64,000 bases of DNA from an uncultured Myxococcales bacterium (GTDB lineage: Bacteria; Myxococcota_A; UBA9042). This document shows, piece after piece, positions 46,460 through 63,215 of this stretch. The translations under genes were made by a program, and so were the position numbers. The stretch covers positions 17,364 to 81,363 of the forward strand of contig CAIYBN010000145.1 in NCBI GenBank assembly GCA_903924465.1. Direction: 5' to 3'. Position 1 is the stretch's first letter. Each line of letters begins with the position of its first letter. The notes under the pieces were generated by a model, which worked only from the letters and a program-made list of their open reading frames with translations, was not told the origin of the DNA and searched no databases.

Positions 46460-48352
46460 TCAAACCGCGACCGCAACCCGCAGGCCCTCACCCACGTACC
46501 GCAAATCCACGGCGCTCTCTGGGTCCAGACCGCCCAATTCGTCGGCCAGTCGATCCAGCGTCGTTTCCAGGAAAGCCGTCAGCGCAACCACGTCTTCGTC
46601 GCTGAGATCCGGTCGCGTCAGCAGCGCGCGGATCAGCGCCCGCCGCAGGTCCGTGTTGACCTGCCGCCCGCCCAACTGACCTTCGAATCCACGCTGCAGG
46701 AATGCCTGGAAGGTGGCGCGATCCAGCGGCGCAAGTTTCGGCTCGCCGGTGACCAATTGCCAGGCAATCGCCGTGCCCACCAGCGCGCGAAGCGGCAACG
46801 GCGCAGTCGCGGTCAGATCACCGGCCGAAAGCGTCTGACCCATTAGCACAACCGCGGCAATCGCCGACAGCCGCTGGCGGATGACCGCGAGTTCGTCCAG
46901 CGTCGCCACCGGCTCGCTCTTGTCGTCGTGACCGTACTGCGGAAAAGCCAGGGTCAGACCGCGCACCAGTTGGGCGTCCACCGTCTCCAGGCGATCCAGA
47001 CCCGCAGTGCCCCCCAGCTGGTGGCGCAGCTTGCGCGCGCGCTGCGCTTCCACGAGCACAAGACTGTGGCCCGCGGTAAACAGCTCGCGCAGCGGCAGGA
47101 CGTTGAGCAGCAGGCCGGCGTAGGTCACGTCGGCGTCGCTCAGGAATTCCAGGCCCATGGACGCGGTCATGAGCGCGTGCATGCTCCACCGGCTCAGTTC
47201 ATCCACGGCAGAAGGCCGTTCGGCGCGGGCCGACTGCAGCGTGTAGCCGAGCCGCACCAGCGCGAGGCGCAACCGCACCACATCGCCTTCCGGGAGATGC
47301 GCCATCACGCGGCCGAGGAAGCCGCCGTCGCGCACTTCGCGCAGCGCCAGACCCAGCCTTACCGGGACGTCCTCGGGCAGATACGGCTGCAGCGTCTCCG
47401 GTTCTGACGCGGCCGTTCCACGATATCGAGCGTGTAGCTCGCGTTTCCAGGCGTGGGCGTCGCGGTAGCTGTAGACCTGCAACGCTTCTTCGCGATCCAG
47501 GAAGCCGATTTCCTCCAGCCGCGCGTTGCGCAGCTGCAAGACGTCTTCCTCCAGCTGGGCCGGCAACTCCCAGCGCGTGGCCAGCAGCAGCGCGCGACCT
47601 CGCGCCGCCGACTGCCGCCACACCGACGCAAGCACTTGGCGCACCGCCGTCAGGTTGGGATCGTCGGCGTTGCCGATCAGCTGAAAGGCATTGTCCGGCG
47701 AGGTAAACACCTCCGCGTCATCGGGAATGTCGCCTTCCATGTCGTCTTCCGTGAGGATGACGACCTTGAGCGACTGGCCCAGATAGAAACTCAGCAGGCC
47801 GTCATCTTGCGCCGCGACGAAGCGATCGATGACGTCCTTGCCGGCGTCCTCCGCGGTCAGCAGCCATTCGGACACCGCTTGGGTGTCCAGTTCCCCCGCC
47901 AACCATGCGTCCAGATCCAGCGAGGCCTGCAATTGTCGGGGCGAAGCCAGCGACAGCAAGTCGCCGGCGTCGTTCAGACCGATCTCCTTGATCAGCAGAA
48001 CAAATTCTTCCGGCGCCATGGCTTGAACGGCGCGAGCCGGATCGGGCAGCGACAAGATGAGATCGAGCTTTTCATCGCCGGTGCCGCGCAAGAACCGCAG
48101 CGACGACCAGGTCAAATTGCGGCCACCGCGATCCAACAGCGGCGCCAAAGCCTGCTGTCGGGCGTCGGGTTGATCCGCGAACGGATCCGGCGCATCGCCG
48201 GCCTGCGGCACCCACGGTTCCAGATCTTCCGCCGGCGCAGAGGGCTCGGCCAACGCGTCGTCTTCGTCCTCCGCCCAATCGTCCTCCAGATCGAGGTCGT
48301 CGCCGTCGTCGAGATCGTCTTCGTCCAGGAGGTCGTCGTCGTAGTGCGCCAT
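46460..48352 (-). CDS. Hypothetical protein (630 aa) with extremely acidic N-terminus
   Basis: MAHYDDDLLDEDDLDDGDDLDLEDDWAEDEDD... followed by a long helical region without recognisable motifs. Directly upstream of the xerC/D gene. Confidence 0.65.
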   Translation of the reverse strand: MAHYDDDLLDEDDLDDGDDLDLEDDWAEDEDDALAEPSAPAEDLEPWVPQAGDAPDPFADQPDARQQALAPLLDRGGRNLTWSSLRFLRGTGDEKLDLILSLPDPARAVQAMAPEEFVLLIKEIGLNDAGDLLSLASPRQLQASLDLDAWLAGELDTQAVSEWLLTAEDAGKDVIDRFVAAQDDGLLSFYLGQSLKVVILTEDDMEGDIPDDAEVFTSPDNAFQLIGNADDPNLTAVRQVLASVWRQSAARGRALLLATRWELPAQLEEDVLQLRNARLEEIGFLDREEALQVYSYRDAHAWKRELHARYRGTAASEPETLQPYLPEDVPVRLGLALREVRDGGFLGRVMAHLPEGDVVRLRLALVRLGYTLQSARAERPSAVDELSRWSMHALMTASMGLEFLSDADVTYAGLLLNVLPLRELFTAGHSLVLVEAQRARKLRHQLGGTAGLDRLETVDAQLVRGLTLAFPQYGHDDKSEPVATLDELAVIRQRLSAIAAVVLMGQTLSAGDLTATAPLPLRALVGTAIAWQLVTGEPKLAPLDRATFQAFLQRGFEGQLGGRQVNTDLRRALIRALLTRPDLSDEDVVALTAFLETTLDRLADELGGLDPESAVDLRYVGEGLRVAVAV

Positions 48353-48469: not shown

Positions 48470-49288
48470 ATGGTAACCCTCCCCCAGCGGCGACGCATCG
48501 CGGTTTTTGACTCTGGCGTCGGCGGTCTGACCGTCCTGGGCGCGGTGCATGCCGCCCTGCCGTGGGTCGATCTGCGCTTCCTGGGCGACACGGCGCGGCT
48601 GCCCTACGGCACCAAAAGCGCGGCGACCGTGGAACGCTACGCGCTGCAGGCGTCCAAGAAATTGGTGGAAGTGCCGGTCGACGCGCTGGTCGTCGCGTGC
48701 AATACCGCGTCATCGTGTGCGATTCCTGCGTTGCGCGACGCCTATCCATTTCCGGTCCTCGGCGTGATCGACCCCGGCGCGGAGGCGGCGGTGCGCGCGA
48801 GTCGAACGGGGCACATCGGCGTGTTGGGCACGGAACGCACGATCGCGTCTGGCGCCTATCCGGCAGCAATCGCGATGTTGGACGGCAACGCCCGGGTGCA
48901 TTCGCTGGCCACGCCGCTGTTGGTGAGTCTGGCGGAAGAAGGCTGGTTCGATCACCCGGCGACCGAGGCGACGCTGCTCGCTTACCTCGCGCCGTGGTTG
49001 GCCGATGCCGGCGCGCGCAAAATCGATACGCTCGTGCTGGGTTGCACGCACTATCCCGTCTTCAAGCCGATGCTGAAAAGGGTGCTGGGACGTTTGCTCG
49101 ACCGCGACGTGGCGCTGGTGGATTCAGCTGAACCGATCGCACAGGCGCTCACGCGGATGCTCGGACCCGCGCAGCAGGCGGAAGGCCGCATTGACCTGCT
49201 GGCCACCGACGCCGTGGAGCGGTTCGTGCGGGTGGGTGGCCTGTTCTTTCCGGTGGGCAAGGCCGCCGTCGAACTGGTCGACCTGTAG
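48470..49288 (+). CDS. murI: Glutamate racemase
   Basis: MVTLPQRRRIAVFDSGVGGLTVL...VVACNTASS...LGCTHYP motifs. The preceding 339 aa of the track ORF are antisense to the acidic-protein gene. Confidence 0.9.
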   Translation: MVTLPQRRRIAVFDSGVGGLTVLGAVHAALPWVDLRFLGDTARLPYGTKSAATVERYALQASKKLVEVPVDALVVACNTASSCAIPALRDAYPFPVLGVIDPGAEAAVRASRTGHIGVLGTERTIASGAYPAAIAMLDGNARVHSLATPLLVSLAEEGWFDHPATEATLLAYLAPWLADAGARKIDTLVLGCTHYPVFKPMLKRVLGRLLDRDVALVDSAEPIAQALTRMLGPAQQAEGRIDLLATDAVERFVRVGGLFFPVGKAAVELVDL

Positions 49289-49324
49289 ACTGCTGACAAA
49301 AAGATCAGGTGCGTGACGGGCGTG

Positions 49325-50287
49325 TCAGTGAGCGAGCTTGCCGTCGCTGGCGTATTGCTCAATCAGCTTCTCCGCATCCAGCGCCGCCATGCAGCCCATA
49401 CCAGCCGCGGAAATCGCTTGCCGATAGCGGCTATCCGCCACATCGCCCGCGGCGAAGACGCCTGGGACGCTGGTTTGCGTCAGGCCGTGCAGCTTGACGT
49501 AGCCATTTTCGAACAACTCGATCTGGCCCTGAAAGACGCTTGTGTTGGGCGAATGGCCGATCGCCACGAACACGCCCTGGCAGGCCACTTCGCGCGTCGA
49601 TCCGTCGACCGTTGACTTCAGGCGCGCACCGGTGACGAACTTGCCGTCGCCGTAGACTTCGTCCACCGCGGCGTTCCATTCCACCTTGATCTGTGGGTTG
49701 TTCAAAGCGCGTTCTGACATGATGCGGCTCGCGCGGAAGCTGTCGCGGCGGTGGACGATGGTCACGGTCGGGCAGAAGCGCGTGAGAAAATTGGCTTCTT
49801 CCATCGCGGTGTCGCCGCCGCCGACCACGAGCACATTTTTGCCGCGAAAGAACGCACCGTCGCACGTCGCGCACGCGGAGACACCGCGGTTGAGGTACAC
49901 CTGCTCGCTGGGGATGCCCAACCAGCGGGCGTTGGCGCCGGTGGCGATGATAACCGTCGCCGTTTCCAGCCAGCCGGAATCCGTGCGCAGGCGCAGCGGA
50001 AAACCGGAGAAATCGACTTCCTGAATGACTTCGTCGCGGTGTTCCGAGCCGAATTTTTGCGCCTGAGCCCGGCAACGCTCGACCAATTCCGGGCCGGTGA
50101 CGCCTTCCGGGAAGCCGGGGAAATTCTCGACTTCCGTGGTAATCATCAGTTGGCCGCCGGCCATCATCAGTTCGCCAGAAGGGAGAAATCCGCCTTCGAA
50201 CACGATCGGTTTCAGATCAGCGCGGGCGGTATAAATGGCAGCGGTGAGACCAGCGGGGCCGCCGCCGATGATGACAACTTTGTGCAT
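49325..50287 (-). CDS. trxB: Thioredoxin reductase
   Basis: Start at MHKVVIIGGGPAGLTAAIY. Redox-active CATCDGAFF. NADPH motif VVGGGDTAMEEA. Confidence 0.93.
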   Translation of the reverse strand: MHKVVIIGGGPAGLTAAIYTARADLKPIVFEGGFLPSGELMMAGGQLMITTEVENFPGFPEGVTGPELVERCRAQAQKFGSEHRDEVIQEVDFSGFPLRLRTDSGWLETATVIIATGANARWLGIPSEQVYLNRGVSACATCDGAFFRGKNVLVVGGGDTAMEEANFLTRFCPTVTIVHRRDSFRASRIMSERALNNPQIKVEWNAAVDEVYGDGKFVTGARLKSTVDGSTREVACQGVFVAIGHSPNTSVFQGQIELFENGYVKLHGLTQTSVPGVFAAGDVADSRYRQAISAAGMGCMAALDAEKLIEQYASDGKLAH

Positions 50288-50410
50288 GAAGACCTCGGGA
50301 AACGGCGCGGCAACTGTGGCGCGCGACCGGCTTTCTGGCATGGCAACGCGCACCCGTCAACGACGGCGCGGAATGTCCACGAAAGGACGACAGGTTGCCG
50401 CAGGCAAGGC

Positions 50411-52132
50411 CTACTCAGATGCGACCTGACCCGGAGCCAGCAGGACTTCAAAACGACCGTCGATCGCCGAGAGTGCCGAGCCGAGCAAGTGGCTGTCGAG
50501 CAACACGGTGTCTGACGGGCTGTTGCCGAGCTGGTTGTCGCCACCCGTGCCCGTGCCCAACGGCGTCTGGACCTTGACCGCCAATACGTCGATCTGCACG
50601 CCGAGCAAGGGCAGGCCGGATTGCGTCAGGATTTCGCCGACGAGCACCATCGGCGGCGGCAACACCAGGTGCCACGGATTCGCGGCGGTATCAGCCGTCA
50701 CTTCGTCGATCCGCGCCATCACCCGCGCCAAGGACGTCCCGGGGGACGGTTCCACCCACACCGCGTATTTGCCGGGATCGACCCACACGGCAAAGTTGCC
50801 ATCTGCGTCCGGGCTCGTGGAGAACGTCGCTTCGTCGCCGTCCGTGTCTGAAGGCTCGCCGTCGGATTCCACTTCGCGCAACGTAACCTGGGCATCCGGC
50901 ACACTGCGCGAGGCAAAATCCTTGACCGTCCCTGTCACGCGCACCCGCGACTGCAGGTCGATCTCCTGATCGCCTGGCACGAGCGTCGTCGCGATGAGTT
51001 GCATGCGCGCAGCGATCGCTTTGGGCGGCGGGGTGATGGTCAGGTCGCCCAGAAGCGGCGGCGCGACTACCTGCGCGGAGCCCGTCGCGTCAGTCATGGT
51101 GTTCCAGATGAGATTCAGCCGGGCGAGCGTCACGTCGTCAGGCAAGTCCGTCACCTTCATCACATACCGCACTGCGGCACCCGCGAGCGGTTGCCCGTCG
51201 GGACCGCGAACGTGCAAAACAGTGGTCGCGGCGGGCGGCAACTGTGTCAGATGGATCACCGGCAATTCACTGGCCACGGTCGTCACATCCAGCGGTGCCG
51301 CAACTTCCCCAGACGGCAGGCTCCCCGCCTGATCGGCCGACACCGTCGAATCGGGGCCAAAGACCAACCGGGCGGGCGGCGCGGTCGGATCGACCTTGAA
51401 GCTGTACTGGCCGGTCGCATCAGTCGTGCCGCGCGTCGACCACGCCTGACCCGCATCGTCGCGCAACCACACGCGCAGGCCGACGATCGGCTTGTTGGCG
51501 CCGGCCACGATGCGCCCGGTGAGCGTCTTCAACTCCGACTCGGCCGGCAGGACCAGATTCCACTGGTCGATCGAATCGCCGGCCGTCAGGCTCGAATAGT
51601 GCGGCGGAATATCTTCTGACTGCGGCCAGAACGCCAGCGCGTAGCTCTGCCCCTTTTGCACGCGCAGCTCGTAGCCCTGCGGCGCGTCGGTGCCCGGAAA
51701 CCGCTTCAGCGCGGAGTAGGAGGTCGCCTGGAACATCAAGTCACGGCCCGCCACGGCGCCGGGCGCTGTGACCAACAGGGTGCCGGGGATCGACGCAGAC
51801 AGCAGGTTGCCCTTTTGCGTCACCGTACCGTGAATCACTGCCGGCTCCGTCAGGACCAGCTTGCGCGGCTCGTTCTGGCTGGCACCGGTTAGCGTCACAT
51901 CGAACTGCTCCACGACAAATCCGCTGTCCGCTGGCGGCGAAACGCGAATGATGACGGGCGTATCCGTGACCGTGGCGGCGACGCAAAAACGCGCCTGGTA
52001 GCATCGCAATCCCGCAACGCAGTCGCTGTCCACAAGGCATTCGCCTGCCGGTGCATCGGCTGCGGTACAGCCGCTTACCAGCAGGCCAAACGCGCACGGG
52101 AGCACGCGCGTCAGGAGCCAGATTGGATGCAT
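50411..52132 (-). CDS. Hypothetical lipoprotein with repeated beta-sandwich-like modules
   Basis: Start near MHPIWLLTRVLPCAFGLLVSGC (lipobox). No catalytic motifs recognised. My manual indexing is off by 1 nt relative to the track here. Confidence 0.6.
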   Translation of the reverse strand: MHPIWLLTRVLPCAFGLLVSGCTAADAPAGECLVDSDCVAGLRCYQARFCVAATVTDTPVIIRVSPPADSGFVVEQFDVTLTGASQNEPRKLVLTEPAVIHGTVTQKGNLLSASIPGTLLVTAPGAVAGRDLMFQATSYSALKRFPGTDAPQGYELRVQKGQSYALAFWPQSEDIPPHYSSLTAGDSIDQWNLVLPAESELKTLTGRIVAGANKPIVGLRVWLRDDAGQAWSTRGTTDATGQYSFKVDPTAPPARLVFGPDSTVSADQAGSLPSGEVAAPLDVTTVASELPVIHLTQLPPAATTVLHVRGPDGQPLAGAAVRYVMKVTDLPDDVTLARLNLIWNTMTDATGSAQVVAPPLLGDLTITPPPKAIAARMQLIATTLVPGDQEIDLQSRVRVTGTVKDFASRSVPDAQVTLREVESDGEPSDTDGDEATFSTSPDADGNFAVWVDPGKYAVWVEPSPGTSLARVMARIDEVTADTAANPWHLVLPPPMVLVGEILTQSGLPLLGVQIDVLAVKVQTPLGTGTGGDNQLGNSPSDTVLLDSHLLGSALSAIDGRFEVLLAPGQVASE

Positions 52133-52231
52133 CGACGAATTCACGCGTTCACTTCCTCTCGCCGTCTTGCGCCATCAGGCCATCGGCACCCTACTCATCC
52201 CCGCGCGGCGATCCAGTCCCACCGCACGCCG

Positions 52232-52759
52232 CTACTGCACACAAATGTTCCCCGTGACCTGGATCCGCCATTCGACGGAGTCCCAGACAACGCCGGGCGG
52301 AAAATCGGTGGGCGTCACCGCGCCGCCCAGCTGCACCGCCGAACTGACAACCGCCAGCAGCGTGTGTTCCTTCGCACCCGGATTCCTGAACGTGCACACC
52401 AGGACATCGCAGCTATTCTTGTCCCGGCAGACCGCGGCGATATCGAGAACGGTCTGCGACGCATCCCAGTCATAATACCAGGAATAATGCAGTGTTGACG
52501 GGTCAACGCCTTGGGTGAAAACGCTGTTGACCCGGAACTGGGAGTCAGTGCCCTGGGTCGGGTTGATGACGAGAAACGGCGTGAACTGCTCTGGCGACAC
52601 CTGTTTGATCTGCAAAATGGGCGGCACGGCGGCGGGGGGATCCGCAGTTGGGGGGAGCACAACGCAGCTTGTCATGAACATTGCGGACACCACGTTCAAC
52701 CACCAGCCACGCAGCGACTGCCGCTGCCGAGCACCAGTTGGTGGCTGTGCATGATCCAT
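52232..52759 (-). CDS. Small hypothetical lipoprotein
   Basis: Start chosen at MDHAQPPTGARQRQSLRGWWLNVVSAMFMTSC (n-region, h-region, Cys). Confidence 0.5.
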   Translation of the reverse strand: MDHAQPPTGARQRQSLRGWWLNVVSAMFMTSCVVLPPTADPPAAVPPILQIKQVSPEQFTPFLVINPTQGTDSQFRVNSVFTQGVDPSTLHYSWYYDWDASQTVLDIAAVCRDKNSCDVLVCTFRNPGAKEHTLLAVVSSAVQLGGAVTPTDFPPGVVWDSVEWRIQVTGNICVQ

Positions 52760-52975
52760 GCCAAACGCGTCCGAATTCGCAGTCAGGCAATAGTCAACCC
52801 GCTGACATTTCAGCGCTTGTTCTTGTCTGACGCGAGGTCGATCAGCCATCCAGACCCGTCCGCCATGACGCTTGCCCGTTGCCACGCCTGACACGGTTGT
52901 CACGGCGCGACCGCCTTGCTGGTGAACATCGCCCGCGGTGGTTGCAAGCAGGCTCACGGCCGGAGCGAAAAACGT

Positions 52976-55621
52976 CTACGGTCCTTCAGTCTTGAGTTGT
53001 TCTTCCGCAGCTTTGAGCTGGGCCTTGTAGCCCGCATTGGCCGGATCCAGTTTGATCGCCTTTTGCAGGTACAAGACTTTCAACTTGGCCTTGCTGGCCT
53101 TCTGCGCCAGTGCCGCAAATTTGCTGGCTTCCTGGATCGCCGAACTGCCTTCGTCGGCCGGCTTTTCCACGGGCCGCGCGTCGGGACGAACCGGACGGAC
53201 AACAGGTTCCTTTTCAACCTTCTTGGCGGCCGCCTCCTTGTCCGCCTTCTTGGCAGCGGCGCGCTCCTTGGCGGCGCGCGCTTTGGCCGTTGCGGCCTCC
53301 TTGGCTGCAGCCGCGCGTTCCGCTTTCGCTGCCTGCGCATGCTTGGCCGCGACTTTTTGCGCTTCCTTCCTGTTCTGGGCTTTTTCCTCGCGCTCAGCCG
53401 CAGCGTCCGCTTGTGCCTTGGCCGCTGCCGTCTTGGCTTCGGCGGCCTTGGTCTCCGCGATCGCCGCGTCCACCGCGCGCTGCGCCTGTTCTTTCAGCAA
53501 CAAGGCTGGCGCGTGCCCGGCGTTCAACTTGAGCGCTTCTTGCGCTTTGGCCAGCGCGGTCACCGGGTCTTTCGTCGCCAGCGCAGAATTGCCCTCTGCC
53601 ACCAAGCGTTGCGCTTCCGTTTGCCGCGCAGCATCGACGGGAGGTGGCGACGCAGCGGCCACATCGCCCGTTCGTCCCGCATCCGGCGAAGGTGCGGCAA
53701 GAGCTGGCTGTAGAACCGGAACTGCCACAACAGGCGGAGGTGTCGGAACTGGAATCGCCGCGGGCTCCGGTGCAACATTCGGTGTCGGCGCCGCCGCGGC
53801 AACGACCGGAGTCGGTTCCGCAGCGACAGGTTCCGCCACAGCGGTGGCGTCGGCGGCTGGCGCAACAACCGCTTCCTCAGGTGCGGACGGCGCAGCGGGC
53901 GGGGCGGGCAGATCGGGAAGCGCGGAACGCTGCGACATCCACACCGAGACGCCGATCATGAGTGCGGCAAAGGTGCCAATCGCCAACAAGGCCTTGCGAT
54001 TGAGCTTTTCTTTGGGTGGCGTCGGCGGGACTTGGTCACCCAGATCCGCGACCGAGCTGGGCGAGATCGCATCCTCGTCAAAGAAGGCGCCCTCGGCCAA
54101 TTGCACGGTCAACGATCGCCCGGTGCGTTCCCCGGCTGCTTTCGACGGCTCCGCCGCCGGCTGGTTCACAATGACACGCGGACTGCCCTGGGAGACCGGA
54201 CGCTTCGGCGGTGCTGTGTTGGCGCGCGGCGGACCTGGCGAAAGCGGTGAAAGTGGGCTCAAGGCAACCGGTGCGTCATCCACGGCCTGAGCTGCAGGCG
54301 GCGAAAGGTTGGACACCGGACGCGGCACACCAAGCAAGGTCGGCAGGCTATTCGGCGTCAGCCCGGCGAGCGCTGAACCACCCGTCTTCTGATCCGCGAG
54401 ATTGGCTTCCGCCAGCGCCGCGGCAATGCCAATGCCGGCCACCGTCTGCCGTTCGCGACGTTCCCGGCGCCGGCGCCCCTGTCGCGCCGCTCCGCCTTCT
54501 GCACCGTCCGCGCCCTCATCGTCTTCTTCCGACTCGCCATCCGACGGCACGGGGCCATCCGGCAACGAAGCCAGCGCCGCTGCGTCCGTCGGTGCCTCAC
54601 CTGAGCCAGCACTGGCTGTGGAAGCGACCGCGGCTGCCAGCGCTGCCGCAACGTCGGTGCCCTCAAACTTCATGGTCTCGCGCAGATCGGCCGCATCATT
54701 CGCCGGTGCTGTCGGCGCTTGAACCGGTGTCGGCTGGACGATCGGCGCTGCGGCGACGGCCGCGGACTGCTCCAGCACATCGGGCGCCTTCTGCGCCGCC
54801 AGCGCTTCGACGGCAGTGCGCCAGGACGCGGGCGCCGGGCGCTTGGCCGGATCCTTGTCGAGCGCCTCTGCGAGAGCCGCCTGGAGGTCCTTGACGCCTT
54901 GCAGAGCGGGCTTGACCAGATCCAAGCGCAGTGGCTTTTCGACCGCCTGACGCTTCAGCGCCATCAGGGGTTGGTTCGACGGAAACGGCGGTTTGCCGGC
55001 CGCCAGCGCCCAAACCGTGGTGGCTGCGCCATAGACGTCGGCCGTCTCGCTCGCTGGCTGGCCTTTGCACAGCTCGGCGGCCAGGTATTCCGGATTGCCA
55101 TAGAACAGGTCGGCGCTCGCGCTGGTCTGGTACGCGGGCAGCAACCGCCACCAGCCCACACCAAAGAGTTGGGGCGCACCTGTCGCCAAGGCGCCCGTCG
55201 CGAGCCACACGCGGTTGGGCGAGATGTCAAGATGCTGTTTGCCTTGCGCACCCAGCGCGTCGACGGCACGTGTCAACGCCACGGCCAAGCGCAGCAGCTG
55301 CGGCAAGTCCAAGCGATCACGACGCTTCAGGACAACTTCCAGCGTCGCTGCCTCAGCCGTCAGCCCTGCGGCATCGGTGGCAAGCCAGGCACCTTCCGCA
55401 CCGCGGCCGAACGCGTAGGTCGCCAGCACGTGGGGTCCGGGCTGCTGATCCGCCACGATCGCCTGCAGCGTCGCGTCGTCCGCCCGCGTCCCCGAGGCGA
55501 GCAAAAGCAGCAATGCTGGCGCACCGCGTTCGTCGTCGCGGGTCCAAAACAAGGTGCCAAGCTTGCCCTCTTCGAGAGTGGCATGCACTGTGAATCGTTG
55601 GGCAATCTGCCGATCTGTCAT
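52976..55621 (-). CDS. Membrane-anchored Ser/Thr-kinase-like pseudokinase with Pro/Ala-rich linkers and C-terminal TPR domain (881 aa)
   Basis: N-terminal kinase-like fold (LEEGKLGTLFWTRDDERG; HLDISPNRVWL; QLFGVGWW) lacks the VAIK lysine, the HRD arginine/lysine and the DFG aspartate. Central TM helix (ALLAIGTFAALMIGVSVWM). C-terminal TPR-like repeats and Ala/Lys-rich coiled region. GGAGG RBS. Confidence 0.75.
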   Translation of the reverse strand: MTDRQIAQRFTVHATLEEGKLGTLFWTRDDERGAPALLLLLASGTRADDATLQAIVADQQPGPHVLATYAFGRGAEGAWLATDAAGLTAEAATLEVVLKRRDRLDLPQLLRLAVALTRAVDALGAQGKQHLDISPNRVWLATGALATGAPQLFGVGWWRLLPAYQTSASADLFYGNPEYLAAELCKGQPASETADVYGAATTVWALAAGKPPFPSNQPLMALKRQAVEKPLRLDLVKPALQGVKDLQAALAEALDKDPAKRPAPASWRTAVEALAAQKAPDVLEQSAAVAAAPIVQPTPVQAPTAPANDAADLRETMKFEGTDVAAALAAAVASTASAGSGEAPTDAAALASLPDGPVPSDGESEEDDEGADGAEGGAARQGRRRRERRERQTVAGIGIAAALAEANLADQKTGGSALAGLTPNSLPTLLGVPRPVSNLSPPAAQAVDDAPVALSPLSPLSPGPPRANTAPPKRPVSQGSPRVIVNQPAAEPSKAAGERTGRSLTVQLAEGAFFDEDAISPSSVADLGDQVPPTPPKEKLNRKALLAIGTFAALMIGVSVWMSQRSALPDLPAPPAAPSAPEEAVVAPAADATAVAEPVAAEPTPVVAAAAPTPNVAPEPAAIPVPTPPPVVAVPVLQPALAAPSPDAGRTGDVAAASPPPVDAARQTEAQRLVAEGNSALATKDPVTALAKAQEALKLNAGHAPALLLKEQAQRAVDAAIAETKAAEAKTAAAKAQADAAAEREEKAQNRKEAQKVAAKHAQAAKAERAAAAKEAATAKARAAKERAAAKKADKEAAAKKVEKEPVVRPVRPDARPVEKPADEGSSAIQEASKFAALAQKASKAKLKVLYLQKAIKLDPANAGYKAQLKAAEEQLKTEGP

Positions 55622-55726
55622 GCGACAGGTCCTCCAGAAGTAACCGGCGCCGGGCCAATCAGTGGCTCGGGCACGCTATCATAGGGGCGCACTGCAAGAA
55701 ACGGCAAGCAAACGCGCAGTTCTTGA

Positions 55727-56146
55727 TTAGGCAGTCCGTTGACCATCCGCCGTGAACGGAAAATGCGAGAGGCCGACACGGTTGCCTTCCGGATCGTGAA
55801 CGTAGATCGTCCAAGCCGATTCGAATACTACCGGAACTTCCTGATGCGTCAGCCATTTGAGCCACGTGTCGCGATTTTGCCACGCAATTTCCAGCGCCAG
55901 CAGGTGCAAACCCGGCTCGTCGGACTGCCATTCGTCCGGGACCGGCGTCAGTGCACACCGCTCCAGGGCAATCACGGAGTTGCCCGATCGCAGCCAAACC
56001 GAACGATCGGTTCCGTCCTCAGCGGGCCAGCGGCGCTCCACGTGCAAGCGCAGCACCTTCTCGTAGAAACGCGCCATGGCCGGCAGGTCAAAGCACTGGA
56101 CGGCGAGATGGTGAATGCCAAATGGAGAAATCGGCGGAACGGCCAT
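55727..56146 (-). CDS. VOC (glyoxalase/bleomycin-resistance fold) family protein
   Basis: Start at MAVPPISPFGIHHLAVQCFDLPAMARFYEKVL (AGGAG RBS). The track's 289-aa ORF has an unsupported N-terminal extension. Confidence 0.7.
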   Translation of the reverse strand: MAVPPISPFGIHHLAVQCFDLPAMARFYEKVLRLHVERRWPAEDGTDRSVWLRSGNSVIALERCALTPVPDEWQSDEPGLHLLALEIAWQNRDTWLKWLTHQEVPVVFESAWTIYVHDPEGNRVGLSHFPFTADGQRTA

Positions 56147-56284
56147 GGGCGGACTCCTGAAGGACAGCGGGGTAACGCGCAGGAAGCGCGGGAAACGGTG
56201 AGCTTGCTCGACACGGAAGCGGTGCTGGGCTAAGGTAACTTGGACCTTGGGCGGGCGCAAACGCAAGTCCGCGCGGATGACAAC

Positions 56285-56788
56285 ATGCAAAATCGCACTT
56301 TTTCGATCAGTCGGCTTGCACGACGCGGCCTGTTGGCGGTGTTCACCCTCGGTTTGCTCTCGGTCGCGGCCTGTGGCAGCCACGAGTTCGACGACGTGCG
56401 CCAGTATAAGCTGTTCCTGGAGGGTGCCAAGCCGGCGCTGACCGGGATGAACAAGGCACGCGAAGACCTGTACCAAGTCAACGACCCCGAGCAGATGCTG
56501 CCGCTCTTTCGCGACAGCCTGTTGCCGCGTGTGGAAGAGTTGAGCAAGGCCGCCAACGAAGAGAAAGTGCCCAACGGCAAGCTGGGCGACATCCACCAGG
56601 GCCTGCAGACGACACTCAGTCGCTATGCCGAGAGCACCAAGAAGCTGGTGGAACGCCTGAAATCGGCCAAGGAAGATGAGCGCGAACAGGCGATCGTCGC
56701 TTGGGGCGAAGACGACCAGAAGTTTGGCAAGTCCATGAGCGGATTGGTGAACGATCTGTCGACGTATCTCAGCGAACTGAAGAAATAG
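56285..56788 (+). CDS. Hypothetical lipoprotein
   Basis: MQNRTFSISRLARRGLLAVFTLGLLSVAAC (lipobox), helical, 168 aa. Confidence 0.6.
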   Translation: MQNRTFSISRLARRGLLAVFTLGLLSVAACGSHEFDDVRQYKLFLEGAKPALTGMNKAREDLYQVNDPEQMLPLFRDSLLPRVEELSKAANEEKVPNGKLGDIHQGLQTTLSRYAESTKKLVERLKSAKEDEREQAIVAWGEDDQKFGKSMSGLVNDLSTYLSELKK

Positions 56789-56802
56789 CGCCGCTTTCCG
56801 CG

Positions 56803-57444
56803 CTAGCGACGACGACGACGGCGACGATGGCCGTTGCCGCCTTGTCCCTGCCCGTCTTCCGCGCCATTCTCCTGATCCCGCACCGTCTCCGCGACGATCG
56901 CCTTGGGCGCAATCACCAGCCGCCGCCGCTCTGGCGCCCCGTGGTGCAACAGCGTCAGCCCCGGCGTGCGCGAAAGCTGCGCTGTCAGGAACCGCAAATC
57001 GCCCTGACCCAGCGGGCCGATCGCCAGCGATTTGCCCAGCAACTTGCTCTTCTCCGCCAGCGCTTGCGCAACCTTGTCCAGGCCTTCCGGACGGCGGCGA
57101 CGGAACCCATCGGTATCCAGCGACAGCCGCGTGCGGTCCAGTGAAGTCCGGTTGATCGCCTTGTTCAGGATGAACTGCATCGATTCCAGCACCCGCGTGT
57201 CGCCCTGCGGCTGCAACGCCGGATCCAGATCGGATAGCTGCACGATGACCTGATCCTCATCCGCGCGACATTCCACGGTGGGCATCTTGGCGCCGAGCAA
57301 CTCAAAAAGCCGCTGCGCAGTCGCCTGGGCGATCGCGACCTTCTCGGTCAGTGACACGTGTTGCTTGGGCGTGCTGCTTTCCTCGGACGCATCGTCTTCG
57401 GCAACAGCGGGCGCTTCAGTCGCAGTCAATTCCTGCTCGGACAT
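56803..57444 (-). CDS. jag: Jag/KhpB-type RNA-binding protein (Jag-N, KH, R3H)
   Basis: 213 aa downstream of yidC. C-terminal R3H-like region and Arg-rich tail. Canonical position. Confidence 0.8.
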   Translation of the reverse strand: MSEQELTATEAPAVAEDDASEESSTPKQHVSLTEKVAIAQATAQRLFELLGAKMPTVECRADEDQVIVQLSDLDPALQPQGDTRVLESMQFILNKAINRTSLDRTRLSLDTDGFRRRRPEGLDKVAQALAEKSKLLGKSLAIGPLGQGDLRFLTAQLSRTPGLTLLHHGAPERRRLVIAPKAIVAETVRDQENGAEDGQGQGGNGHRRRRRRR

Positions 57445-57458
57445 GTTTTCCTCTTTCT

Positions 57459-59294
57459 CTACAGCGATTTGGCGGAACGATTGACGTACAGCGTCTGCAG
57501 CACACTCAGCACCGTGTTGGCCAGAATGTACAGGGTCAGGCCAGAAGGCAACTGCAGCATCATCGCCGTGAACAAGATGGGCATGAAATACAGCATCATC
57601 TTTTGCTGCGTCGGATCGCCACCGGCTTGCGGCGTCACTTTCTGCTGGGCAAACATCACGCCGCCGAGCAGCAGCGGCAGCACGTAGTACGGATCCTTGG
57701 CGGTCAGATCCGTCACCCAGCCGAACAGCGGCTGGTTGAACAACTCGACCGAGCTGTTGATCGTCCGGTACAATGCAATGTACACTGGCATTTGCAGCAG
57801 CATCGGCAAGCAGCCGCCCAGCGGATTGACGTCGTGCTTCTTGTACAGGTCAAACGTCGCGCGGTTCAGCTCCTGCGGATCCGCCTTCTCCTGACCGAGC
57901 TTCTTGGCCCGCGCTTCCAGATCCGCGCGCACCTTGTCCATCTCAGGCTTCAGCTGCTGCATCTTCTTCATCGACTTCATGCTGCGCGCCGTCACCGGCC
58001 ACAGGAGCACTTTGACGAGCAGCGTAAGGATGAGAATCGCCAGCGGCCACAGCCCGGTGACGTCGTGCGCCCAGCGCAACACCCAGATCATCGGCTTGGC
58101 GATGACGGTGAACCAGCCAAAGTCGACGCTGCCAACCAGTTCGTGGCCGACTTCCTTGAGCGCGTCCAGCTGTTTGGGACCGGCAAACGTCAGGTAGGTC
58201 CACGTCTTGCCGGCGCCTTTGTCATCGCCACACGCCACGCCGCCCCAGGTCTTCTGATACCAGCTGGGCATGCACGTGGCGGCCGGAATCGTCGTCGCAC
58301 CGGTCGTCAGTTGCGCCTGCACGCCGCCTGAGCCACGCGGTACGAGCAGCGTCGCGGTCTTGTCGTCGTAGCCGGTCAGCGGCACTTCAGCGAGCAGGAA
58401 GTAGCGGGAATCCACGCCAAACCAGTCTGGCTTGCCCATCCGCTGACGATCGGGCAAATCGGCCTTGGCCAAACCCGCCAGATCCTGGTGCAGCAGCGCG
58501 CCCGCCTGCCAGAGTCCCGCGCCCTTGTTGTCCGGCGGCGCAGAAAACATCGCGAGCATCCCGCCAGAGCCCGCCGTCGGGTCCTGAAAACTGCTCACCT
58601 GCGACTGCAACGTGACCTGAACCGCCTGTCCGCTCAGGTTCCACGCCGCGAGCTCCACGTCCAGCGACAGCGGCTGTTCGCTGCCAGCCGCCGTCTTGCC
58701 CGCTGGCTTCCAGGTCTTGACCAGGTAAATCGGCGACTGCACTTTCTGCGGATCCGGCCAGATCATCGCCACATGCGCAGCATCGTGACTGAGCACCGCC
58801 CACTGCGGTTCCGCTTTTTGCAACGCCGCCAAGCTCGGCACCGTCTGCGTCATCGTCGAGGCGCCCGCGCGCCGTTGAATCTTCACCGATGGCTGACCCG
58901 CGACGAGCGCCTGGATCAGGTTGTCCTGGAACGGGTCCCAAGGGGCGTCCCACGTCGGCACCAAATCCAGCTGTCCATCTGCATACTTCGCCTTGGCCCA
59001 TCCCGGCAGACCGGCCGGCTCGTGGCGCGCCGTCACGCGAAACTGCGGATCGGTCAAGTGAACGGACTCCAGCGCGCCGGAGCATGGCGACAAGGTCCAG
59101 ATCGCCTGACCGCTGTTCAGCGTCACGCCGGCAACGCCAGGACGGCACGGACCGGCGGGTTTCGCGGCCACTTCCGGTCTGGCCATGCCCGCGGTGGGCG
59201 TCACGGTTGTGGGCAGATCGGCGCGCGCGGGTTTTGCCGGCAAGATGGCCAACAACGCGAAAAGTGTAAGAAAAGTCGAACGGATGACAGTCAT
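57459..59294 (-). CDS. yidC: Membrane protein insertase YidC
   Basis: 611 aa. Large periplasmic domain. Conserved C-terminal TM core (LPMLLQMPVYIALYRTINSSVELFNQPLFGWVTDL). Confidence 0.93.
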   Translation of the reverse strand: MTVIRSTFLTLFALLAILPAKPARADLPTTVTPTAGMARPEVAAKPAGPCRPGVAGVTLNSGQAIWTLSPCSGALESVHLTDPQFRVTARHEPAGLPGWAKAKYADGQLDLVPTWDAPWDPFQDNLIQALVAGQPSVKIQRRAGASTMTQTVPSLAALQKAEPQWAVLSHDAAHVAMIWPDPQKVQSPIYLVKTWKPAGKTAAGSEQPLSLDVELAAWNLSGQAVQVTLQSQVSSFQDPTAGSGGMLAMFSAPPDNKGAGLWQAGALLHQDLAGLAKADLPDRQRMGKPDWFGVDSRYFLLAEVPLTGYDDKTATLLVPRGSGGVQAQLTTGATTIPAATCMPSWYQKTWGGVACGDDKGAGKTWTYLTFAGPKQLDALKEVGHELVGSVDFGWFTVIAKPMIWVLRWAHDVTGLWPLAILILTLLVKVLLWPVTARSMKSMKKMQQLKPEMDKVRADLEARAKKLGQEKADPQELNRATFDLYKKHDVNPLGGCLPMLLQMPVYIALYRTINSSVELFNQPLFGWVTDLTAKDPYYVLPLLLGGVMFAQQKVTPQAGGDPTQQKMMLYFMPILFTAMMLQLPSGLTLYILANTVLSVLQTLYVNRSAKSL

Positions 59295-59680
59295 TGCTGG
59301 GTCTCACAGGGCGAACTGGTGGAAATCGCGACAGGGGCGGCGGCACGCCACCGGCCATTCCAGGGACCGGGCGGCACCGGATCGTGACCGCCGACACACA
59401 TCGGTTGGCAACGCAGCAGGCGCCAGGCCGTCAACACCAGCGCGCGCGGGACGCGGTGCTGCTGGAACGCTTGCGCGGCGTAGTGCGAGCACGTCGGCTC
59501 AAACCGGCAGGCGGGCGGCAAAAGTCGAGACAGCGTGCGCTGATACAGACGAATCAAAGCCAACAGCGGCAACGCCAGCCAGTAGTCGAGGCGAGCGGCC
59601 GGCGGATCGGACGGTGTCGGTGCGTGCGCGAGCGTCAAGGTGGCCGACTCCGGATAGGGCGTACGACAAATTGCGTCCAT
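59291..59680 (-). CDS. yidD: Membrane protein insertion efficiency factor YidD (start uncertain)
   Basis: LIRLYQRTLSRLLPPACRFEPTCSHYAAQAF...CQPMCVGGHDPVPPGP matches the YidD signature. Stop overlaps the yidC ATG (ATGA). True start probably an internal/alternative codon closer to LDYWLALPLLA. Confidence 0.7.
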   Translation of the reverse strand: MDAICRTPYPESATLTLAHAPTPSDPPAARLDYWLALPLLALIRLYQRTLSRLLPPACRFEPTCSHYAAQAFQQHRVPRALVLTAWRLLRCQPMCVGGHDPVPPGPWNGRWRAAAPVAISTSSPCETQQ

Positions 59681-59751
59681 CACCTGCCAACTCGTATCGC
59701 CGTGCGCATGGCTGGCAGCGGCGCTCAAGACAGTGATTCTGCCGTGAGCCC

Positions 59752-60165
59752 CTAGTCGATCAATCGCAGCTTCTTGCCAAGAAGCATCATTTCCTCAAGC
59801 ACGTCAACCAGTTGCGCATTCGGCCACGGAAGTCGCGCGCTGACGACCAGATCCACGGGGCGCCGCAACGCGGGCCGCAGCACCCGAAAGGCTTCCCGCG
59901 TCAGGCGGCGCAACCGGGCCCTCGCGGGCGCATGGCCAACACCCTTCGCCACCGCGAGGCCCAGCCGTGGCGGGGCGTCTTGCTCGCGCGGCGGGCTGGC
60001 AATCAGGTGGATGTGGTGCCCGTGAGCCCGTCGTCCACGCTGGAAAACGCGGTCAAAGTCGCGCTTGTACTGCAGCCGACTTCCGCGCCCCAACGATCCG
60101 TGTGGCGCCGGAATTTCGCCCGGAGACGCCGGATCAGCCGACGCAGCAGGCGGCGGCGCGATCAC
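59752..60165 (-). CDS. rnpA: Ribonuclease P protein component
   Basis: [26 protein letters not shown]...[27 protein letters not shown], typical RnpA. GTG start overlapping the rpmH stop (GTGA). Confidence 0.85.
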
Positions 60166-60308
60166 TTCGTCGAGACCGACATGCGCAGGCGGCCCTTGGC
60201 GCGACGGCGGTTCAACACTGCGCGGCCATTCTTGGTGGCCATGCGTGCACGAAAGCCGTGGGTACGGAGCTTGGAGATTTTGCTGGGATTGCCTAGACCT
60301 TTCTTCAC
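60162..60308 (-). CDS. rpmH: 50S ribosomal protein L34
   Basis: Reverse complement translates (GTG start) to [48 protein letters not shown]. Canonical rpmH-rnpA-yidD-yidC-jag order. Not in the ORF track (under 60 aa). Confidence 0.85.
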
Positions 60309-61041
60309 GTTACGTTCCTCGGTTCATGGGTTGGCGCGGCGATTGCCCAAACGAAACAGCGCAGTCTGCTCACTTTGGAAGATCAACCGGACGCCCGTTC
60401 AACACACACCTGCAAAAGCAGCGGGGGCGGAAGTGTACACCAACCTGCGGAAAATGCGAGTCCCTTCGCGCATCGCCGGCTGGGCGTGCGCGGTCGCCGC
60501 TGAGACCGCGGCGATCGCGAAACCGTCGTCATCCGCAGTCCGTGCGGCAACTGGTTGATTCTGCTTGGGTCTGGCAAGCACGCGTAAATTCGCATGGTTA
60601 GAAGGAACGACGGCAATCTCGCTGTGCATCATAGGGTTACCCCCGTCCGCACCGGCAATCGTGTCAACGGCGTACGGTGCAAAATGTCAACCTCGTCACG
60701 ATACTGCCATTTGGTTCAATGGGTTGCGCTCCTTTCCAGTCAGGTAATCGAGGCAAATTTGCGGCCCCCCCTTGTCGACGTTCGGGCGCCGCGGTACCAA
60801 TGGACTGGCCAGCCACTTCACCCGGCGCCGTCCCTGCAAAGGGCCGTTCGTGCGTTGGTGAAGAACTGGACGAAACGATTTGGACAATCTGACGAGACGT
60901 CACCGACAACTCCGCGTGGATGCTGTGCTGCAAAGCATGTGGTCCGTGCTGTTTTCCGGGACACGACAAATGCATCGCACGCTTGGACCGCAACACCGAA
61001 TTCTTCCCTAACACCGAACCTTTCCGCATCGATGGACATGC

Positions 61042-61086
61042 TGCCCAACTCGCCCAACTCGCCCAACTCGCCCAACTCGCCCAACT
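61042..61086 (+). repeat. Tandem 9-bp repeat (CGCCCAACT) x5, first copy TGCCCAACT, 45 bp upstream of the preferred dnaA start
   Basis: Direct reading: tgcccaact cgcccaact cgcccaact cgcccaact cgcccaact tgacc. It would encode (PNS)n only if dnaA started at the upstream ATG 61032. Confidence 0.9.
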
Positions 61087-61130
61087 TGACCGAGTCTTCC
61101 GAAACGCCGCGCCATGCGCGTTCCGCAGGC

Positions 61131-62639
61131 ATGGGCGAGGGCGTCACGGGGGGCGAAACGCCGGACGAAATCCGCGCCGTTTGGCAGCAGACCTTGGCGC
61201 GACTGCGGACCCTCACGCGACGCTCGGTCGTTGACGCGTGGTTTGACAAGGTCATCGTCCACGCCGCCGGTCCAGCCGGTTTCGTTCTGGAAGTGCCCGA
61301 TGAGCACTTTCGCGACGTGATTGCCCAGCAACATTTGGCGCCGTTGCGCAGGGCCATCGAGGCCAATGGCCACGGACAGCCCGCGATCGAGTTGCGCGTG
61401 ACCGATGATGGGTCATCGCAGGAATCCGGTCCCGAGGCCGCAATGGCCGACCACCTCGCCGTTCACGGCACGTACGCCGCAGATCCGCTGTTTGCCGCCG
61501 ATCCTCGCTTTGCCAACGCCACGGCGCGCGACACGCTGGATGTTGCCAATACCTTGGAGGCCAGTAGCTCGCTGGTGCCGCGCTTCACGTTTGGCAACTT
61601 TGTCGAAGGTGAATCGAACCAGTTGGCACTTTCCGCAGCGCGCACCGTGGCCGAGCATCCCGGCGAGACGGTCAATCCGGTGTTCCTGTACGGCGGCGTC
61701 GGTTTGGGCAAGACGCATCTGCTGCATGCGATTGGCAACGCCGTGACCGCGCGTCACCCGCACTTGCGCGTGCGCTACGTGCCCGCGGAGACGTTCGCCG
61801 ACGACACGATTTCCGCCATGCGGTCCCGCGACGCGTCCGTGCGTGTCGATGTTCGTGCGTTCTACCGCAACGTGGACGTGCTGCTGTTGGACGATGTGCA
61901 GTTCCTGCAAGGCAAGGAAAAGACTCAAGAAGAGTTTTTCCACACGTTCAACGCGCTGTTTCTGGCCGGCAAGCAAATCGTGCTGACCTGCGACCGCTTT
62001 CCGTCTGAGCTGCACGACTTCCACGAGCGGCTGCGGTCGCGTTTTGAGAACGGGCTGACCGCGGGCATTTCACCGCCGGACCGCGATCTGCGCGTGGCCA
62101 TCCTTCGGCAACGTGCGGCGCAACACACCGCGGCGCGTCTGGCGGGCGAAGCGGGCCCTTCGACCGACCTGGCAAATCAGCACGTGCCTTTGGACGTCAT
62201 CTACTATCTTGCCGACCACTTGCGCAATAATGTGCGAGAGTTGGAAGGCGCGCTGCACAAGCTGTTTGCCCACGCGAAGCTTGGAAAGCGGCCGATCGAC
62301 TTGGCCCTGGCGCGCGCGGCGCTTGGGCCCATCATCGAATTGCCGTCGCGCCATCTCACCGTGGAAGTGATTCAGCGTGTCACGGCGCAGCACTATGGTC
62401 TGCGGGTGACGGATTTGAAGGGAGCCAAGCGCCACCGTGGCGTCGTGGTGCCGCGCATGGTTGCCGTATGGCTCACGCGCAAGCACACCCAGGCTTCGTT
62501 TCCGGAAATTGGCCGGTCGTTTGGCGGCCGGGATCACTCGACCGCGATCCACGCGTGCCAGAAGATCGACTGGCTTGTGCAAACCGATCCGGCCGTTCAG
62601 TCGGCCGTCCAGGCGATCGAGACGACGCTGGGCAAGTAG
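61131..62639 (+). CDS. dnaA: Chromosomal replication initiator protein DnaA
   Basis: N-terminal IRAVWQQTLARLRTL..., AAA+ Walker A GGVGLGKTHLLHAIG, Walker B LLLDDVQFL, C-terminal DNA-binding helix-turn-helix domain (RSFGGRDHSTAIHACQKI). Alternative start ATG 61032 would add 33 aa including the PNS repeat. Confidence 0.9.
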   Translation: MGEGVTGGETPDEIRAVWQQTLARLRTLTRRSVVDAWFDKVIVHAAGPAGFVLEVPDEHFRDVIAQQHLAPLRRAIEANGHGQPAIELRVTDDGSSQESGPEAAMADHLAVHGTYAADPLFAADPRFANATARDTLDVANTLEASSSLVPRFTFGNFVEGESNQLALSAARTVAEHPGETVNPVFLYGGVGLGKTHLLHAIGNAVTARHPHLRVRYVPAETFADDTISAMRSRDASVRVDVRAFYRNVDVLLLDDVQFLQGKEKTQEEFFHTFNALFLAGKQIVLTCDRFPSELHDFHERLRSRFENGLTAGISPPDRDLRVAILRQRAAQHTAARLAGEAGPSTDLANQHVPLDVIYYLADHLRNNVRELEGALHKLFAHAKLGKRPIDLALARAALGPIIELPSRHLTVEVIQRVTAQHYGLRVTDLKGAKRHRGVVVPRMVAVWLTRKHTQASFPEIGRSFGGRDHSTAIHACQKIDWLVQTDPAVQSAVQAIETTLGK

Positions 62640-62669
62640 CCAGCGACCGAGTTGGCCACACGATCGGGT

Positions 62670-63071
62670 TCAGAGGGCCGGAATCGACGCGCGCGGAGCC
62701 ATCGCTCCATGCACTGCGGACCGCAACTCTTCTGCCAGAAATGGCTTTTCCACGCAGGGGTTGGGCACGCGCGCCAGGAACTCGCCGGCTTTGCCGACAA
62801 AAGCCCCGCCCGTCAGAAAGACCATCGTCGCCGCATGAGGTGATTGCCGGGCTTCCAGCGCTGCGTGCACATCCATCCCGGTCAGTTCCGGCATCATGAG
62901 ATCGCACAACAGCAGGTCAAAGTCGTCCTGTGCGAGCAACAGGTCCAGACCGACCTGACCGCGCGTGACGGACACCACGTCGAAGCGCGCGCCGAGGAGC
63001 CGAGCGATGAGGCTGCCGATGAGCGGTTCATCGTCGATCACCAGAATGCGCGGGCGTTTGGGATGCGGCAT
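62670..63071 (-). CDS. Single-domain response regulator (CheY-like receiver)
   Basis: RILVIDDEPLIGSLIARLL...DLLLCDLMMPELTGMD...VFLTG: receiver fold with phospho-acceptor Asp, no output domain. Confidence 0.85.
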   Translation of the reverse strand: MPHPKRPRILVIDDEPLIGSLIARLLGARFDVVSVTRGQVGLDLLLAQDDFDLLLCDLMMPELTGMDVHAALEARQSPHAATMVFLTGGAFVGKAGEFLARVPNPCVEKPFLAEELRSAVHGAMAPRASIPAL

Positions 63072-63215
63072 GAATGGGTGAACGAGCGCGCGAGCAAGCG
63101 CCTGATCATGCTACGCCAAGGATTTTGCCCTCGCAACGCAGCCATTTCGCGGTGTCGTTTGTGACGTCGGCCAACATGCGGCACGATAGCGCTCGGGCAC
63201 GTCCGGGAGCCGTCG

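Follow-up and report, generated by a model that had tools for sequence, protein, structure and literature searches.

In the window, as we call the whole 64,000-nucleotide stretch of DNA from an uncultured Myxococcales bacterium analyzed here, the open reading frame (ORF) at 52976..55621 on the minus strand (stop codon included) encodes an 881-residue bitopic membrane protein that classical criteria identify as a Hanks-type pseudokinase. From the N- to the C-terminus it consists of the pseudokinase domain, a cytoplasmic linker, one transmembrane (TM) helix, a Pro/Ala/Val-rich stretch, a first tetratricopeptide repeat (TPR) unit, a long helix, a spacer and a second TPR unit. Judged from this architecture alone, we lean toward a function as a non-catalytic, envelope-spanning scaffold. 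Coordinates refer to the window throughout and, unless indicated otherwise, to its minus strand.

The kinase-like domain (residues 1-270, 54812..55621) has a complete bilobal kinase fold. Pfam PF00069 (Pkinase) matches residues 93-264 with 33.2 bits, above the gathering cutoff of 31.7 (E = 4.7e-8), and a profile built from 20 family members matched Mycobacterium tuberculosis PknA in the PDB over residues 7-228 (E = 1.7e-15), while a second PDB profile search returned nothing further at E ≤ 10. An AlphaFold2 (AF2) model of residues 1-285 reached a mean predicted local distance difference test score (pLDDT) of 83 and a predicted template modeling score of 0.85, and Foldseek placed the kinase domains of M. 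tuberculosis PknI, PknA and PknB at its top ranks (E about 1e-12). All of these approaches agree that the N-terminal domain is a complete Hanks-type kinase fold, well beyond chance, as the initial annotation had proposed; its caveat that the domain might turn out not to be kinase-like does not hold in view of the PF00069 and PknA profile matches.

The catalytic residues were mapped with a HMMER alignment to the PDB chain of PknA and with a second alignment, made with MAFFT, in which 52 different family sequences were combined with PknB, whose motifs were recovered correctly. Both alignments gave the same map and agree on the loss of the β3 Lys, the DFG Asp and the catalytic-loop Lys; counts for the superfamily described below refer to 72 members from both of its branches. 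The glycine-rich loop is degenerate (E-E-G-K-L-G, residues 17-22, 55556..55573, from the alignments to PknA and PknB), such that GxGxxG reads E17-x-(G/S)-K20-L-G22, with E17, K20 and G22 each present in 52/52 family sequences and the first Gly replaced by an invariant Glu. The β3 (VAIK) Lys, noted as missing in the initial annotation, is indeed replaced by Leu39 (55505..55507), a Leu in all 52 family sequences and a Lys in none of the 72 superfamily members. For the αC Glu, HMMER pairs D58 with the PknA Glu and MAFFT places a gap, with an Asp or Glu two columns later; its usual partner, the β3 Lys, is lacking. The catalytic loop is reduced to the remnant H-L-D-I-S-P-N-R (residues 130-137, 55211..55234), in which HRDxKxxN reads H130-L-D132-x-x-P135-x-R137. 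The claimed loss of the HRD motif and Lys is therefore only partly correct: the Arg (L131 in the window protein, Arg in 0/52), the Lys (S134) and also the Asn (R137, an Arg in 52/52) are gone, but Asp132 of HRD is retained (Asp in 48/52). Similarly, the DFG Asp is absent as stated, but the site corresponds to G154-V-G156, one residue downstream of the LFG that had been proposed. This position is a Gly throughout the family (52/52) and an Asp in a single superfamily member (1/72). The APE Glu is kept (E183 within A-A-E-L-C, residues 181-185, 55067..55081; 52/52 in the family, 72/72 in the superfamily), as is the Arg of subdomain XI (R261). At APE+2, Cys185 (55067-55069) is a Cys in 71/72 superfamily members; a Cys is not conserved there in PknA or PknB. 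A published definition counts as pseudokinases those domains that have lost at least one of the VAIK Lys, the HRD Asp and the DFG Asp (10.1101/2025.01.12.632604), and here the Lys and the DFG Asp are lost invariantly. By sequence, then, the window protein is a Hanks-type pseudokinase in the classical sense, and by the usual definition the same is true of the whole 72-member superfamily. Since the HxD Asp is conserved and the G-loop Lys invariant, the domain may nevertheless have kept some residual nucleotide binding.

Two blocks of the kinase-like domain are invariant in the family. FGxGWWRLLP covers the DFG site and the start of the activation loop (F-G-V-G-W-W-R-L-L-P, residues 153-162, 55136..55165); G154 takes the place of the DFG Asp and the WWRLLP portion is fixed, although its AF2 pLDDT is low. 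The second block lies in the αG region (consensus KRQxxEKPLxLxLVKP; KRQAVEKPLRLDLVKP, residues 223-238, 54908..54955) and represents a superfamily signature present in all 76 fetched members of both branches. Of the 250 fetched proteins, 76 have it around residue 220 in the looser form KRQxxE[KR]PLxLxx[VAL][KR]P; every member of both branches carries it, and among the generic kinase hits P0214 alone matches, at about the same position. The most conserved blocks, residues 153-162 and 210-238, are also where AF2 is least confident (pLDDT 49-70). Because low pLDDT together with high conservation fits segments that fold on a partner, these parts of the C-lobe may be interaction segments. The activation segment is of full length, and the ortholog alignment reveals no conserved Ser/Thr within it.

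The kinase-like domain is followed by a variable cytoplasmic linker (residues 271-542, 53996..54811), delimited by composition, segment conservation and invariant columns. Its identity among orthologs is 0.15-0.20 and its parts range from 103-201 plus 27-127 residues in length. An acidic patch and a basic one (RRRRERRER, residues 383-391) lie within it, as does a motif ahead of the membrane, T500-x-R502...F513-F514, in which all four named residues are invariant. The sole 19-residue window with a mean hydropathy above 1.6 marks a single TM helix at about residues 543-565 (53927..53995), a segment of constantly 23 residues in all orthologs. The number of Lys and Arg in 15 residues is 2.2 before the TM helix as opposed to 0.6 after it, consistent with the positive-inside rule, and no signal peptide was found in the pseudokinase. 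Taken together, the missing signal peptide, the one hydrophobic segment and the charge bias predict a bitopic protein with its N-terminus inside, an arrangement that would place the kinase-like domain in the cytoplasm and the C-terminal 315 residues in the periplasm. Composition and hydropathy thus bear out the originally described succession of Pro/Ala-rich linkers, one TM helix and a further Pro/Ala/Val-rich segment, and the topology prediction called for at that time gives the same picture.

Directly beyond the membrane lies the extended Pro/Ala/Val-rich segment (residues 566-661, 53639..53926), 96 residues with 30% Ala, 27% Pro and 15% Val that correspond to 60-139 residues in orthologs. 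An AF2 model of residues 655-881 resolves the remainder of the periplasmic region. TPR unit 1 (residues 662-699, 53525..53638) is formed by helices 662-682 and 686-699 (pLDDT >90), and is followed by a single long Ala/Lys/Glu-rich helix (residues 704-797, 53231..53512) of 94 residues (39% Ala, 16% Lys, 12% Glu; 85-161 residues in orthologs). Since this helix contains only three large hydrophobic residues and no hydrophobic heptad core, it is, as modeled, not a classical coiled coil. A disordered spacer rich in Pro, Lys, Glu and Val (residues 798-823, 53153..53230; pLDDT <50; 21-65 residues in orthologs) leads to TPR unit 2 with a capping helix (residues 824-881, 52979..53152; helices 824-841, 845-858 and 863-879).

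The evidence that these units belong to the TPR class is mixed. Searched at E ≤ 1, the full window protein has no Pfam TPR match; TPR unit 1 taken in isolation matches TPR_2 at E = 0.055, and Foldseek returned for the periplasmic model local TPR matches only (about 1 Å over 47-60 columns), none of them at E < 1e-3. By contrast, the family profile matches consensus TPR proteins at E = 1.9e-8 and, over the whole sequence, the TPR of SGTA at E = 2.6e-7; the best SGTA stretch falls on TPR unit 2, where VLYLQKAVKLDPxNxxYKxLLKxAExEL is aligned with SGTA 100-129. In sister-branch proteins TPRs are detected by Pfam. Three or more tandem 34-residue repeats are absent, as there are only single helix-turn-helix units at 662-699 and 824-858 with the helix and the spacer between them. 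We conclude that the C-terminal region holds two genuine but isolated TPR units and no TPR array. The earlier description of TPR plus Ala/Lys-rich coiled regions is accordingly right in placing TPR-type units beyond the membrane, but the units are two and single, and the Ala/Lys-rich part is one helix lacking a heptad core.

The ORF starts with an ATG, 8 nt upstream of which a Shine-Dalgarno sequence can be read (GGAGGA, 55630..55635). A consensus scan of the 105-nt gap upstream of the start codon also gave a sigma-70-like promoter match (TTGCCG-18-TATGAT, 55678..55707), which is weak evidence. An identical 881-residue protein (P0001) is recorded on four contigs, the longest of 167.8 kb, and 25 further ortholog clusters show 38-79% identity over the full length, such that the ORF is, from its conservation, a real gene under selection and not a chance ORF. 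The selection is purifying: mean pairwise identity peaks in the C-lobe (0.65) and in TPR unit 2 (0.67), the most conserved segment of the protein, whereas the linkers are length-variable with values of 0.15-0.22. This pattern rules out a decaying gene. Tandem DNA repeats, considered as a source of the low-complexity regions, amounted to only three short weak arrays, and no Rfam families were found in 49000-64000.

When one genome was scanned for each GTDB species, the window-type gene turned up in 33 species genomes with one copy each; a 34th locus (L039), a weak match of 29%, was left out of this count. All 33 are uncultured metagenome-assembled genomes (MAGs) from lakes, groundwater or similar sites, and are titled Myxococcales, Myxococcota or Deltaproteobacteria. 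Five loci (L013, L014, L016, L024 and L032) bear the titles "uncultured Enterobacteriaceae" or "Klebsiella pneumoniae", which are almost certainly wrong, as the loci are of Myxococcota type with identical gene order. An exhaustive profile search of 1.84 billion representatives returned 15 above 340 bits and a second group near 150 bits. This second group constitutes a sister branch of about 40 clusters (640-730 residues) from Myxococcota-type MAGs only, with no annotation beyond "protein kinase" or "TPR repeat protein", and with a layout that matches that of the window protein: pseudokinase, linker, one TM helix, Pro-rich stretch, TPR unit, spacer and terminal TPR unit. The C-lobes of the two branches share 35-36% identity (E 1e-30 to 1e-32), while the position of R137 is occupied in the sister branch by Asn, Thr, Ser, Ala or Cys. 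Window-type and sister-type genes were not seen together within the fetched loci. On sequence grounds both branches form one Myxococcota superfamily. The literature searched contains no description of this pseudokinase family, in keeping with the earlier statement that such proteins are largely uncharacterized. Next after the family in the profile search score P0037, P0038 and P0040 (911-2592 residues), which carry three to six tandem kinase-like domains; in P0037 a canonical-looking first kinase copy (VALK, HRD, DFG) is followed by degenerate ones (HQD, VFS, VFG).

The gene lies among housekeeping genes. On the minus strand of the window the order runs yidD (59291-59728), yidC, jag, a VOC/glyoxalase-fold gene directly upstream of the pseudokinase (55727-56146), the pseudokinase, two lipoprotein genes and trxB, followed by the convergent murI; a further predicted lipoprotein gene on the plus strand (56285-56788; lipobox in the translation, no Pfam or NCBIfam family) is inserted between jag and the glyoxalase gene. 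The two downstream genes encode a predicted lipoprotein of 205 residues (52232..52849; lipobox in the translation, no Pfam or NCBIfam hit) and one of 577 residues with CarboxypepD_reg/Ig-like domains (50411..52144; lipobox in the translation, PF13620 at E = 1.9e-13), both of which are conserved in synteny and are candidate periplasmic partners. The block from the plus-strand lipoprotein gene to trxB recurs in nearly all window-type loci that are long enough, with the lipoproteins down to 28-38% identity. Together with its single copy in the 33 species genomes, this conserved gene order shows that the pseudokinase gene behaves as a core gene. The neighbors of dnaA (60594-62639, plus strand) are yidD, yidC and jag, and it coincides with the minimum of the cumulative GC skew, at about 60-62 kb. 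This points to a probable replication origin at the right-hand end of the window, some 5 kb away from the pseudokinase. In 5/6 loci of the sister branch (L040-L043 and L045; gene at 8001-10190) the pseudokinase gene immediately precedes gyrA in the same orientation, and in 3/6 loci dnaN-recF is nearby and an active-type 441-residue membrane-anchored Ser/Thr protein kinase (STPK) lies within a few kb. Both branches thus sit in an origin-proximal gene cluster. A redox link via trxB and Cys185 was considered and dropped, as the gene after trxB is murI and no peroxiredoxin, and the sister branch has no redox neighbors. Elsewhere in the window, a 1109-residue predicted lipoprotein with nine MopE-type putative metal-binding motifs (894-4223; PF11617, E = 6e-72) is encoded, as are, amid housekeeping genes, two adjacent large TPR proteins (1320 and 661 residues), an 825-residue HEAT-repeat protein and a 630-residue DUF6178 protein (29342-35286, 41639-44116 and 46460-48352, all on the minus strand).

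If the protein is a scaffold, its kinase-like domain, devoid of the ligands for ATP and Mg2+, would phosphorylate nothing, and the remodeled surfaces of the C-lobe would hold a cytoplasmic partner in place of a substrate. The TM helix would join this domain to a long, length-variable periplasmic tether, made up of the Pro/Ala/Val-rich stretch, TPR unit 1, the Ala/Lys/Glu-rich helix of roughly 14 nm and the Pro-rich spacer, which would expose the conserved TPR unit at its end to a distal partner, far from the inner membrane; candidates for this role are the two lipoproteins whose genes follow immediately downstream. A lone TPR unit seldom suffices for a binding groove, and as both units here stand alone, the protein probably builds one by pairing or oligomerizing. 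Coupling across the membrane would be brought about by assembly and not by phosphotransfer. A membrane pseudokinase scaffold has a precedent in YukC/EssB of the type VIIb secretion system (T7SSb; 10.1101/2025.01.24.634720). A further step, for which we see a low probability, is that this long-tether branch of the Myxococcota-restricted superfamily couples an origin-cluster-linked cytoplasmic process to the outer envelope; the link to the origin is suggested by dnaA, yidC and jag next to this branch and by gyrA, dnaN and recF next to the sister branch.

Several observations weigh against the scaffold. A purely structural domain need not keep the HxD Asp or the G-loop Lys, yet these are present in 65/72 and 63/72 superfamily members, respectively. 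No partner for the pseudokinase turned up in the window or in related loci: kinase, FHA and PP2C/phosphatase genes are absent from the window (Pfam on unknown ORFs) and from ±10 kb of related loci, and the search for a partner STPK or FHA protein suggested in the initial annotation therefore came back empty in the window and the window-type loci. The intergenic gaps of 87-126 nt without overlaps do not support an operon, and these gaps together with the sigma-70-like match upstream of the pseudokinase leave co-transcription with its neighbors unsupported. Moreover, none of the window-type neighbors, the lipoproteins included, recurs at sister-branch loci, so that the synteny may reflect inherited gene order instead of a functional linkage. 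Finally, every member derives from metagenome bins and is known from sequence alone.

Among the alternatives, the pseudokinase could be the regulatory partner of an active Hanks kinase whose gene lies elsewhere, serving as its allosteric activator, decoy or substrate, acting via dimerization and with the periplasmic part as a sensor, which we regard as possible but unlikely. In fold it comes nearest to PknA, PknB and PknI, receptor kinases that use dimerization for signaling, and it has an invariant R9, which we take to be the equivalent of R10 in the N-lobe dimer interface of PknB. However, the position matching PknB L33 is not conserved, and conservation is strongest in the C-lobe and not on the N-lobe dimer face. 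An active-type STPK is encoded a few kb away in 3 of 6 sister-branch loci, but no such kinase is encoded in the window or in any window-type locus, where a tblastn search with the 441-residue STPK gave no match. Myxobacterial genomes are rich in STPKs, M. xanthus having 99 of them, 11 of which are pseudokinases (PMC6791715).

Alternatively, the domain may be an atypical active kinase or a nucleotide-binding switch, in which K20 substitutes for the β3 Lys, R137 for the metal and the HxD Asp acts as the base. WNK kinases replace the β3 Lys by a G-loop Lys, and CASK is a Mg-independent kinase with G-F-G in place of DFG. The retention of the HxD Asp and K20 in most of the superfamily, with K20 and R137 both invariant in the family, speaks for such a site. 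On the other hand, K20 occupies the fourth position of GxGxxG and the WNK Lys the sixth, the invariant Glu in place of the first loop Gly puts a negative charge at the phosphate site, and the β3 Lys and both metal ligands are missing together. The activation segment has no conserved Ser/Thr, and R137 is not conserved in the sister branch, so that the superfamily has no common catalytic solution. We therefore consider this explanation improbable.

Slightly less probable still is a structural tether of TolA/TonB type, running from the inner membrane to outer-membrane lipoproteins, for which the kinase-like domain would merely be a cytoplasmic anchor. The 94-residue helix and the 96 Pro/Ala/Val-rich residues are long enough to cross the periplasm, some orthologs contain KPVE-type repeats, and three lipoprotein genes flank the pseudokinase. 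The resemblance is nonetheless one of composition only: neither Pfam nor NCBIfam assigned the protein to a TolA, TonB or Tol-Pal family, and ExbB/TolQ-type genes are not found nearby in the window or in related loci. An anchor would also not need a C-lobe conserved at 65% identity. An anti-phage defense kinase of PD-T4-6 type, suggested by PADLOC models that match residues 3-284 (E = 4e-18), can be rejected as extremely unlikely, since only the generic kinase domain is matched, the residues that bind ATP/Mg are missing, the gene occurs as a syntenic single copy amid housekeeping genes by dnaA/yidC in 33 species and not in a variable island, and the neighboring genes have no PADLOC hits.

To our knowledge, bacterial Hanks-type pseudokinases are few and mostly unstudied, and the only well-understood membrane examples that we know of, YukC/EssB and MviN, are from monoderm or mycobacterial envelopes. 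The locus adds a well-defined and strongly conserved pseudokinase family from diderms, which is recognizable by FGxGWWRLLP, KRQxxEKPLxLxLVKP and the APE+2 Cys, has a fixed architecture and offers clear candidates for interaction surfaces. Should the protein indeed be a scaffold, it would be a tractable example of a dead kinase that couples across the membrane of Gram-negative-type cells, and the family might count as an eighth one of bacterial pseudokinases, whereas a WNK- or CASK-like atypical active site would amount to a new catalytic solution. Coupling between the origin and the envelope, if it exists, would represent a device for cell-cycle or envelope coordination without a described bacterial counterpart. 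At present, this is a description from organisms outside culture, with a scaffold function that we infer.

By sequence and fold, the closest known proteins are the mycobacterial receptor-type Hanks kinases PknA, PknB and PknI (17-23% identity). These are active and keep the β3 Lys, HRD, Asn and DFG, whereas the window protein has lost the β3 Lys, the Asn and the DFG Asp, and their outer module consists of PASTA or another sensor instead of TPR units on a long tether. The MviN(MurJ)-fused pseudokinase of M. tuberculosis, family ActPs3 in the atlas of bacterial Ser/Thr kinases (bSTK atlas) discussed below, is likewise a membrane-associated Hanks-type pseudokinase that recruits a partner, namely FhaA. 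However, its activation loop is shortened and its fusion partner is a multi-pass flippase, whereas the window protein has a single TM helix and an activation segment of full length, and no FHA gene lies near its own. As for the consensus and SGTA-type TPR motifs, profiles of this kind match both C-terminal units, but these are merely two single units with more than 110 residues between them, compared to three or more in tandem.

The category of pseudokinases is not new in Myxococcota, given the 11 among the 99 STPKs of M. xanthus (PMC6791715). The bSTK atlas lists seven pseudokinase families (CP1, DYD, ActPs1-3, DLHK and GLW), none of which is stated to be Myxococcota-specific (10.1101/2025.01.12.632604). 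Compared by description only, these are Hanks-type domains without the VAIK Lys, like the window protein; DLHK in addition keeps the HRD Asp and lacks the DFG Asp and the Asn, as is the case here, but has four further domains (10.1101/2025.01.12.632604). Two Myxococcota families of the same atlas, both listed as canonical kinases, share modules with the locus: Myxo1 has C-terminal TPRs, as does the window protein, and Myxo2 contains a carboxypeptidase-regulatory-like domain (10.1101/2025.01.12.632604). As the latter domain type recurs in the lipoprotein encoded two genes downstream of the pseudokinase, there is a weak hint that kinase-like and CarboxypepD_reg modules are functionally linked in Myxococcota. 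The window protein is not a member of the YukC/EssB family, since it has no YukC Pfam match at E ≤ 1, and neither an FtsK-like ATPase with FHA domains nor WXG100 or YukD is encoded in the window or within ±10 kb of related loci. Nevertheless, YukC/EssB has the same order of a cytoplasmic N-terminal pseudokinase, a membrane span and a C-terminal domain outside, and is a dimeric scaffold whose kinase-like domain binds partner domains (10.1101/2025.01.24.634720), which by analogy makes it the closest counterpart in function to the pseudokinase described here.

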